A stretch of DNA of 64,000 nt from Escherichia coli. Lineage in GTDB: Bacteria > Pseudomonadota > Gammaproteobacteria > Enterobacterales > Enterobacteriaceae. The DNA is taken from the NCBI RefSeq assembly GCF_003334785.1, contig NZ_QOWV01000001.1; one strand, 5' to 3'. Below, one piece after another: positions 34,708 through 48,980 of the stretch; the stretch's first letter is position 1; each line of letters opens with the position of its first letter. Under the pieces are notes generated by a model. The model did not search any database. It was not told where the DNA came from and saw nothing but the letters and a program-made list of their open reading frames with translations. Both the position numbers and the translations under genes were made by a program.

Positions 34708-35444
34708 TTCCTTTCAAATGAAACGGAGCTGCCATGCTCCGTTTACTTCGTCATTATTTTTACTTTGTTCCCGCGCAGTTATCAAAAGCAAAAGGAATAG
34801 GTAAAAATATTCTTCTCAAATTACAGTTAGTTATAAGGATTTCCTTAACTGCTTCTCCTCACCATCATGTTATTTTCGCCACATCATAATCCTGGGCTTG
34901 CTGAAGAATAATTGAAATGATATTAGTAATTCCACTGCCTTTGGTAGAGGAAAGTGCTAAATAATAATCAATTGTTAAATTATTGTGCATTTCACTACTG
35001 GAACTGTAATCAGAAAAGATAGACATGCTTAGCCAATCTCTATTTGATTGAATTGAAAGATGTTTGTTAAGGCATGGATGCAAGCTATAGATTCTGATAC
35101 GGTCAATAAAAGAGAATTGCTTAACAATTTTGCAAAATGTATTGGCGAGTAAGAACCGCATTTGGTACTTTCCGGGCAACCGCCAGACGATTCTTTATTG
35201 GTAATGAGAATAATTAACAATTAAAGAGCGTCGCGAAAGAATAATGTGTCTCGACAGGGGAGACACAGTACGAATCGACATAAGGTGATCGTCTGAATCA
35301 CCAGAATAAATAAAGTCGGTGATAGTAATACGTAACGATAAAGTAACCTGACAGCAGAAAGTCTCCGAGCCTGTGCAGGGTCCCAATCCGGGATTACACA
35401 TGCTGGTTAATACCAGTAATTATAATGAGGGAGTCCAAAAAACA

Positions 35445-41031: not shown

Positions 41032-41083
41032 AAACAATAAGGGCTGACAGTTGTCAGCCCTTTTTCACGCTAAAAGCGATTAT

Positions 41084-45351: not shown

Positions 45352-46071
45352 ATGACCCTTGATTTACCTCGCCGCTTCCCCTGGCCGACGTTACTTTCGG
45401 TCTGCATTCATGGTGCTGTTGTGGCGGGTCTGCTCTATACCTCGGTACATCAGGTTATTGAACTACCTGCGCCTGCGCAGCCGATTTCTGTCACGATGGT
45501 TACGCCTGCTGATCTCGAACCGCCACAAGCCGTTCAGCCGCCACCGGAGCCGGTGGTAGAGCCAGAACCGGAACCTGAGCCGATCCCCGAACCGCCAAAA
45601 GAAGCACCGGTGGTCATTGAAAAGCCGAAGCCGAAACCTAAGCCAAAACCGAAGCCGGTGAAAAAGGTACAGGAGCAGCCAAAACGCGATGTCAAACCCG
45701 TAGAGTCGCGTCCGGCATCACCGTTTGAAAATACGGCACCGGCACGCCTGACATCAAGTACAGCAACGGCTGCAACCAGCAAGCCGGTTACCAGTGTGGC
45801 TTCAGGACCACGCGCATTAAGCCGTAATCAGCCGCAGTATCCGGCACGAGCACAGGCATTGCGCATTGAAGGGCAGGTTAAAGTTAAATTTGACGTTACG
45901 CCGGATGGTCGCGTGGATAACGTACAAATCCTCTCAGCCAAGCCTGCGAACATGTTTGAGCGTGAGGTGAAAAATGCGATGCGCAGATGGCGTTATGAGC
46001 CGGGTAAGCCAGGCAGTGGGATTGTGGTGAATATCCTGTTTAAAATTAACGGCACCACCGAAATTCAGTAA
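45352..46071 (+). CDS. tonB: TonB energy-transducing protein
   Basis: start at MTLDLPRRFPWPTLLSV (239 aa); (EP)n and (KP)n proline-rich spacer. Confidence 0.96.
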   Translation: MTLDLPRRFPWPTLLSVCIHGAVVAGLLYTSVHQVIELPAPAQPISVTMVTPADLEPPQAVQPPPEPVVEPEPEPEPIPEPPKEAPVVIEKPKPKPKPKPKPVKKVQEQPKRDVKPVESRPASPFENTAPARLTSSTATAATSKPVTSVASGPRALSRNQPQYPARAQALRIEGQVKVKFDVTPDGRVDNVQILSAKPANMFEREVKNAMRRWRYEPGKPGSGIVVNILFKINGTTEIQ

Positions 46072-46078
46072 GCAGAAA

Positions 46079-46108
46079 GTCAAAAGCCTCCGACCGGAGG
46101 CTTTTGAC
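46079..46108. terminator. bidirectional rho-independent terminator shared by convergent tonB and yciA
   Basis: perfect palindrome gtcaaaagcctccg-accggaggcttttgac between the two convergent stops. Confidence 0.85.
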
Positions 46109-46110
46109 TA

Positions 46111-46509
46111 TTACTCAACAGGTAAGGCGCGAGGTTTTCCTTCAGGATCAACCGCGACATACTTAAATAATGCTTCTGTCGCTTTATAGCGTTGCCCAAT
46201 TGGTTCAGACGCTACTTTTTTCACCCACACTTCAATATTAATGCTGACCGATGTCGTCCCTTTCTGGACACAGCGTGCATAGCAGCACACCACATCGCCG
46301 ACCGCAACCGGCCGTAAGAAAGTCATTCCTTCAACCCGCACAGTCACTACGCGACCGTGGGCAATTTCTTTTGCCAGAATAGCGCCGCCAATATCCATTT
46401 GTGACATTAACCAACCACCAAAGATGTCACCATTGGCATTGGTATCGGCGGGCATGGCTAAAGTACGTAAAACAAGATCGCCCTGAGGGACGTTATGTGT
46501 TGTAGACAT
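46111..46509 (-). CDS. yciA: acyl-CoA thioesterase (hotdog fold)
   Basis: 132-aa ORF. Confidence 0.9.
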   Translation of the reverse strand: MSTTHNVPQGDLVLRTLAMPADTNANGDIFGGWLMSQMDIGGAILAKEIAHGRVVTVRVEGMTFLRPVAVGDVVCCYARCVQKGTTSVSINIEVWVKKVASEPIGQRYKATEALFKYVAVDPEGKPRALPVE

Positions 46510-48921: not shown

Positions 48922-48980
48922 TTCCGCACAAAAACGACCCCGTAATATACGGGGTCAATAAGGACATGGTATAAAGGGTA

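Follow-up and report, generated by a model that had tools for sequence, protein, structure and literature searches.

How two convergent genes separated by only a few dozen base pairs end their transcripts, and whether one element can serve both of them, is the question raised by the junction of tonB and yciA in Escherichia coli. We examined this junction in a stretch of 64,000 nucleotides of E. coli DNA (assembly GCF_003334785.1, contig NZ_QOWV01000001.1), referred to here as the window. The palindrome that occupies positions 46078-46109, between the two genes, is with a probability of roughly 93% the known bidirectional Rho-independent terminator common to tonB and yciA. Such a bidirectional terminator at this junction is an ordinary feature that was already published in 1985; it is the founding, classic example of a bidirectional intrinsic terminator, has since been reused as a part in synthetic biology, and carries little weight as a discovery. 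The analysis confirms that a real functional element was recognizable from sequence alone, and it makes three small additions. These are a comparative picture, in which the core is invariant, the loop varies freely and some lineages have REP-like sequences or another convergent gene instead; modest evidence for a maintained symmetry of the outer A/U stem, which agrees with the published weakness of the minimal tonB terminator; and the proximity of the stop codons to the stem on both sides, seen alongside a downstream Rho region.

A perfect palindrome lies between the convergent stop codons

The gene on the left of the junction is tonB (45352-46071, + strand, 239 amino acids, stop codon TAA at 46069-46071), which corresponds to b1252 of strain MG1655 (1311089-1311808). 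Its convergent neighbor is yciA (46111-46509, - strand, 132 amino acids), which encodes an acyl-CoA thioesterase, corresponds to b1253 (1311848-1312246) and is presumably the P14 of the older literature. Both identities had been assigned in the original prediction for this DNA, and the RefSeq annotation of matching E. coli genomes agrees with them: many complete E. coli chromosomes are 100% identical over a 1451-bp region around the gap, where tonB, yciA and yciB are annotated. The 39-bp gap between the convergent stops, proposed at the same time, is likewise borne out by the open reading frame list and the raw sequence, which place it at 46072-46110 (GCAGAAAGTCAAAAGCCTCCGACCGGAGGCTTTTGACTA), between the tonB stop and a yciA stop codon at 46111-46113 that reads TTA on the + strand and lies 1 nt from the palindrome.

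From about position 35,000 onward the window is offset from MG1655 by +1,265,737, and the palindrome corresponds to MG1655 1311815-1311846, between b1252 and b1253. Relative to MG1655 the window shows scattered SNPs and lacks a 1,199-bp IS5 (including its target duplication) upstream of oppA; because this IS5 is absent and a few SNPs are present, the source of the window is a K-12-like E. coli strain and not MG1655 itself. The terminator allele in the window is the K-12 allele. The empty IS5 site lies at about 34,960 in the window (MG1655 1299499-1300693), and a different MG1655 offset applies upstream of that point.

An inverted-repeat search, RNA folding and shuffles delineate the full palindrome (46078-46109) as perfect arms of 15 bp around a 2-nt spacer, with the left arm (46078-46092, AGTCAAAAGCCTCCG) and the right arm (46095-46109, CGGAGGCTTTTGACT) each 15 nt in length and 100% complementary. 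The original prediction had correctly called the palindrome perfect but had given it 14-bp arms, which proved to be one base longer on each side. No other perfect inverted repeat with a short spacer reaches this length in the 64-kb window, and in 40 dinucleotide-preserving shuffles of the window (spacer 0-10) the longest perfect arm measured 8-11 bp, an arm of at least 12 bp appearing in none. RNA transcribed from either strand folds at -23.5 kcal/mol into a stem of 14 bp, one fewer than in the DNA arms because a 2-nt loop is too short to be closed by the innermost G-C pair; the loop is therefore 4 nt long. The z-score of this fold is -8.1 on the + strand and -7.2 on the - strand, and none of 200 shuffles folded as well.

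The anatomy of the element, a direct observation like its fold and its improbability by chance, follows the order AGTC-AAAA-GCCTCC-GACC-GGAGGC-TTTT-GACT. At its center is the core hairpin (46086-46101), in which GCCTCC (46086-46091) and GGAGGC (46096-46101) enclose the loop GACC (46092-46095) and which folds on its own at -10.4 kcal/mol. To the left of the core is an A-tract, AAAA (46082-46085), whose complement is the U-tract of the terminator in the yciA direction and which pairs with the U-tract in tonB RNA; to the right is a T-tract, TTTT (46102-46105), the U-tract of the terminator in the tonB direction. The outermost part is a stem extension, AGTC (46078-46081), which pairs with GACT (46106-46109) and emerges from orthologue comparison as Escherichia-specific. 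The expectation that A and T runs flank the hairpin holds in this arrangement, but not their placement outside the palindrome, as AAAA and TTTT sit within the arms, around the GCCTCC/GGAGGC core, and the true flanks (GCAGAA on the left, ATTACTC on the right) are only moderately A/T-rich.

Intrinsic terminator features are present on both strands

With a 6-bp stem that includes five G-C pairs and a 4-nt loop, the core hairpin falls within the dimensions of intrinsic terminator hairpins (stem of about 5-14 bp, loop of 3-8 nt). Directly 3' of the core stem, UUUUGACU is present on both strands and provides a U-tract with 5 U in its first 8 nt. This eight-base tail is the same on both strands because its bases lie inside the palindrome, where AAAA at 46082-46085 mirrors TTTT at 46102-46105 in the symmetry characteristic of a bidirectional terminator. 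Beyond these eight bases the tails differ (AUUACUC on the + strand, UUCUGCU on the - strand), and the T-tract tail is UUUUGACUAUUACUC on the + strand and UUUUGACUUUCUGCU on the - strand. The corresponding T-tract scores are 3.37 (+) and 3.51 (-); since these are nearly equal, the sequence predicts similar strength in both directions. The location is also that of a terminator shared by two transcription units, as the hairpin lies at the 3' ends of tonB on the + strand and yciA on the - strand, which converge on the 39-bp gap. Taken together, the GC-rich hairpin, the common tail and the near-equal scores support the original prediction that the element can act as an intrinsic terminator in both orientations. 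A search of Rfam 15 returned no family at the gathering threshold for the element, only sub-threshold hits to microRNA hairpin models, attributable to chance (21.9 bits, compared to a gathering threshold of 80).

This same element has a substantial published history. Postle and Good (1985, Cell 41:577-585) claim in their title a bidirectional, rho-independent terminator of tonB and P14, and the passages of PMC4824070 and PMC3091783 that cite their paper present it as an example of one terminator serving two adjacent genes. Their element and that of the window share the species, the gene pair and the intergenic hairpin, with no difference of substance. In Cambray et al. (2013, PMC3643576), the tonB terminator is measured in a one-directional reporter in two forms, one carrying 30 nt of native flanks and the other reduced to the hairpin and its U tail. 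The minimal version is described there as weaker than the native-flank version and was among seven terminators set aside because they terminated poorly; the advantage of the native flanks is ascribed to an extended outer stem, and tonB is one of six cases in which, according to the authors, the upstream sequence may pair with the U tail to make an "outer" stem closed by G-C pairs. The "tonB terminator" is also named as a vector part, for example in pJAZZ. In its architecture the element resembles the hypersymmetric or extended terminators (Wright, Kumar & Hayward 1992, EMBO J 11:1957; the "outer terminators" of Cambray 2013), in which an A-tract likewise mirrors the U-tract and an extended stem is closed by G-C pairs (GTC/GAC at tonB/yciA). 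It differs from these in that the G-C-closed outer extension at tonB/yciA, being confined to Escherichia and having lost its G46079-C46108 pair in two sampled E. coli alleles, is not strictly conserved.

A model for termination in both directions

The arrangement of the sequence suggests how one element could release both transcripts. A polymerase arriving from tonB would transcribe AAAA-GCCUCC-GACC-GGAGGC-UUUU, and the GC-rich hairpin would form while the weak rU:dA hybrid occupies the active site, which would release the tonB transcript with a 3' end predicted at 46108-46110, some 7-9 nt beyond the core stem. A polymerase arriving from yciA would read the complementary strand and, because the element is palindromic, would produce the same hairpin, with the loop GGUC, followed by the same tail, with release predicted at 46077-46079. 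In this scheme the A-tract would play a double role, serving as template for the U-tract of the other strand and pairing with the U-tract in the released RNA. Such pairing would lengthen the stem to 14 bp; it should also shield the 3' ends of both RNAs from exonucleases, and termination seems to be more efficient with it. Given the predicted ends, the tonB and yciA RNAs would be complementary to each other across the hairpin. Three points of this scheme are inferred: where precisely the transcripts end, how efficient one direction is relative to the other, and what the outer stem contributes.

Is termination efficient in both directions?

The relative efficiency of the two directions is also the point at which the strongest alternative arises, namely that the element terminates efficiently one way only and is leaky the other way, where Rho acting on untranslated antisense RNA would do much of the work, with the hairpin serving mainly to stabilize 3' ends after exonuclease trimming. 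We consider this alternative unlikely, although it may serve as a refinement of the main reading. The U-tracts are short, consisting of four consecutive U followed by GAC, and a consensus terminator scan reports a site on the - strand only, because it counts the maximal 14-bp stem and a T-rich tail past that stem exists only on the - strand. However, the 8 nt that follow the core stem do not differ between the strands, and their T-tract scores are close to equal. The low efficiency class into which the minimal tonB terminator falls in vivo, as reported in PMC3643576, also points toward leakiness, but the better performance of the native-flank version in that same paper argues the other way, as do the words "bidirectional" and "rho-independent" in the title of Postle and Good.

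The spacing of the stop codons may also favor some leakiness. Counted from the tonB and yciA stops, respectively, the outer stem begins after 6 and 1 nt and the core stem after 14 and 9 nt. Ribosomes repressed the tR2 terminator at such spacing: with a stop codon 28 bp upstream its efficiency was ~90%, and with the stop at 5 bp it dropped to <10%, a loss due to the ribosome blocking hairpin folding (Li et al. 2015).

Published transcriptome data add one observation on the tonB side. A Rho-termination region listed in Supplementary file 2 of Adams et al. (2021) lies on the + strand at 46231 (MG1655 1311968), antisense to yciA and ~120 nt past the hairpin, with upstream/downstream reads of 64/22 in untreated cells and 59/67 with bicyclomycin, corresponding to downstream/upstream ratios of 0.34 without and 1.14 with the drug (Rho score 3.3, p = 6.9e-5). 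This region may act as a backup for read-through past the hairpin in the tonB direction, but the signal may equally reflect independent antisense transcripts initiated within yciA; the counts are low, with tens of reads in 800-nt windows, and bicyclomycin also unmasks transcripts of this kind. The Term-seq tables of the same study (LB, M63) contain no dominant 3' end at tonB or yciA, which we suspect stems from low expression of the two genes in those conditions; these tables thus lend the element no direct support, and the TERMITe supplements contained nothing relevant to the tonB/yciA site. We favor a shared intrinsic terminator that works in both directions; with both stops within ribosome-footprint distance and a Rho region downstream, our analysis suggests that its termination in vivo may be less than complete.

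The convergence of tonB and yciA on a 39-bp gap, with predicted 3' ends overlapping across a hairpin-forming region, is also reminiscent of the collision-dependent terminators of Ju et al. (2019) and Wang et al. (2022, bioRxiv 10.1101/2022.10.23.513370), whose model, proposed for many convergent gene pairs of E. coli, treats bidirectional terminators as a prevalent class there. Applied to this junction, head-on collision of RNA polymerases would mainly drive termination and the hairpin would just position or stabilize the overlapping 3' ends, a scenario to which we assign very little probability. The collision-dependent class is described as unlike intrinsic terminators and free of their features, whereas the tonB/yciA element possesses every canonical one, including the hairpin and the U-tract, which sets it outside that class. 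In addition, the element works without an opposing promoter: it terminates in the one-directional reporter of PMC3643576 with no convergent partner, and it is used alone in vectors. Neither tonB nor yciA is mentioned in the collision paper.

Conservation of the junction across enterobacteria

To place the element in a comparative context, we used 80 enterobacterial yciA loci, in 53 of which tonB converges on yciA; together with the window this provides 54 junctions. The pattern of A-run, GCCTCC, 3-6-nt loop, GGAGGC and T-run is kept in 38 of the 54, from Escherichia, Enterobacter, Lelliottia, Kosakonia, Leclercia, Silvania and some Citrobacter, and this conservation is again observed directly. 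Across the 38 conserved junctions there are 25 different loops, A-runs of 2-8 and T-runs of 1-10, the latter mostly 4-10 and most often 7-8, and the distance from stop to stem in orthologues ranges from 5 to 21 nt. An anchored alignment of 36 distinct orthologous sequences revealed that the six core pairs are invariant, that beyond the core the nearest A-U pair is likewise fixed and its neighbor almost so, and that double-sided changes occur at 7 pairs, all of them in the outer stem. Examples of these paired changes are AAGAA/TTCTT (L054), AAATAAA/TTTATTT (L022) and TAAGAAAA/TTTTCTTA (L027), and the outer stem of E. whittamii is similarly compensated, with ATC/GAT where E. coli has GTC/GAC.

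The covariation score of the outer stem is 0.113, compared to a shuffle mean of 0.074, with none of 500 shuffles attaining the observed value, and to slid controls of at most 0.083. The paired changes thus give modest support to the idea that the A/U symmetry of the outer stem is maintained, modest because A-rich and T-rich columns pair trivially and because hairpin-templated (quasipalindrome) mutation could make paired changes in a single event. On the core stem the covariation is silent, since the six core pairs never vary. The invariance of GCCUCC...GGAGGC across at least six enterobacterial genera could in principle mean that the sequence itself has a function in addition to forming a hairpin; the motifs GGAGG (a perfect Shine-Dalgarno) and CCUCC (anti-Shine-Dalgarno-like), carried in both 3' ends, might meet ribosomes or 16S rRNA, or the core might be recognized by a protein. 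We regard such a function as a long shot and rank above it, as more likely, the ordinary account of a pairing constraint imposed by two strands. Because a G-U pair on one strand is an A-C pair on the other, a stem that must form from both strands would allow only Watson-Crick pairs, and therefore every single mutation in the core would be deleterious in two genes at once.

Not every junction keeps the element. Salmonella (L011, L013) and a number of Citrobacter loci (L014-L020, L023, L037) have gaps of 68-87 bp that contain different hairpins, without the GCCTCC core or the T-run, and to judge from these sequences the classic tonB-yciA terminator is replaced in Salmonella and several Citrobacter. 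We take the hairpins in those Citrobacter gaps to be REP-like by the known consensus, e.g. GCCGGATTTGGCGG…CCGCCATCCGGC. In Kluyvera, Klebsiella, Raoultella, Pluralibacter, Pseudocitrobacter and others (L017, L025, L028, L033, L041-L081), it is a different gene that converges on yciA. This gene encodes a membrane-type protein ending in …YFFFSLLGFL (stop), and its gap to yciA holds a GCCCGG-type hairpin, often with A and T runs on both sides. A hairpin common to the convergent genes is the rule, and the GCCTCC hairpin travels with the tonB-yciA junction. A locus of a different kind is that of Escherichia albertii NBRC 107761 (L005), which has ~1.4 kb of extra DNA between yciA and tonB, with the tonB C-terminus present only at the far end of the locus.

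Variation and copy number within E. coli

Over a 51-bp region, identity was at least 99% in 3266 genomes and below this level in 2158. Strains ST2747 and N64 carry GATT in place of GACT (C46108T) and lose the G46079-C46108 pair, which becomes G-U in tonB RNA and A-C in yciA RNA, with folds of -22.2 (+) and -19.8 (-) kcal/mol, while the B-strain allele differs in the flank only, at 46075. The element is present at one locus per E. coli genome, unlike the many copies that define REP/BIME sequences. The two "places" per genome at which it is found fit a self-match of the palindrome on the opposite strand, and the second vanishes in alleles with an arm mismatch. A REP-like or otherwise dispersed repeat was rejected as an identity for the element on the basis of its single copy per genome.

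A role at the level of DNA, as a protein site, a cruciform, a REP-like repeat or a transposon target, could draw on the perfect DNA palindrome, the GCCTCC/GGAGGC core that is invariant without covariation across several genera, the insertion of IS200C directly at the 3' edge in strain N64 and the REP-like sequences at the same position in Salmonella and several Citrobacter, but it is scarcely credible in place of an RNA terminator, because the element is single-copy, its free loop (25 variants) and kept A/T runs fit an RNA hairpin with a U-tract rather than a dimeric protein site, and its position between two stops and its published termination activity are fully explained by the RNA role.

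Insertion sequences were encountered in the tonB-yciA region of some E. coli strains. In N64 (NZ_CM165879.1, L084 1543-2255), IS200C adjoins the 3' arm in the order …CTTTTGATT / IS200 / ATTACTC… and carries its own hairpins at both ends. In WP7-S17-ESBL-04 and MC4100_0.1s, the tonB-yciA region is in two pieces, with an IS1A insertion.

Other hairpins in the window

The other convergent gaps of the window, galU/hns, oppF/yciU, rluB/btuR and ompW/yciE, all hold strong hairpins that are likewise GC-rich and placed in a short gap between convergent genes, and the feature class is therefore ordinary. Compared to these, the tonB/yciA palindrome is the longest and the sole one with 15 perfect pairs. 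The galU/hns gap contains a palindrome with perfect 11-bp arms (27923-27947, AAAATCCCGCC-GCT-GGCGGGATTTT), an A-run upstream and a T-run downstream, and this looks like a second bidirectional terminator. A further candidate for a shared terminator is the palindrome AATAAGGGCTGACA-GT-TGTCAGCCCTTTTT (41036-41065) in the 52-bp oppF/yciU gap; its left flank is A-rich, a T-run is present as well, and the fold on either strand has an energy of about -24 to -25 kcal/mol. The remaining two hairpins look one-directional, with the partner gene lacking an obvious terminator: that of ompW/yciE (48936-48956) has a T-run on the - strand only (GTTTTTG), and that of rluB/btuR (61998-62024) has a T-run on the + strand only (TTTT).

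Two further palindromes lie near yciQ. One is a perfect palindrome with 12-bp arms in the intergenic region between yciQ and rluB (61032-61062, CAGTGAGTCAGA-TGTAAGT-TCTGACTCACTG), without a T-run. The other, shortly after yciO and ~70 nt into yciQ as annotated, is imperfect, with 20-nt arms that are 85% complementary (59080-59122, AAACACGGAGATCCCTTCTT-ATG-AAGAAGGGATCTCGCTCTTT). It may represent a terminator or an attenuator, or indicate that the start of yciQ is mis-annotated.
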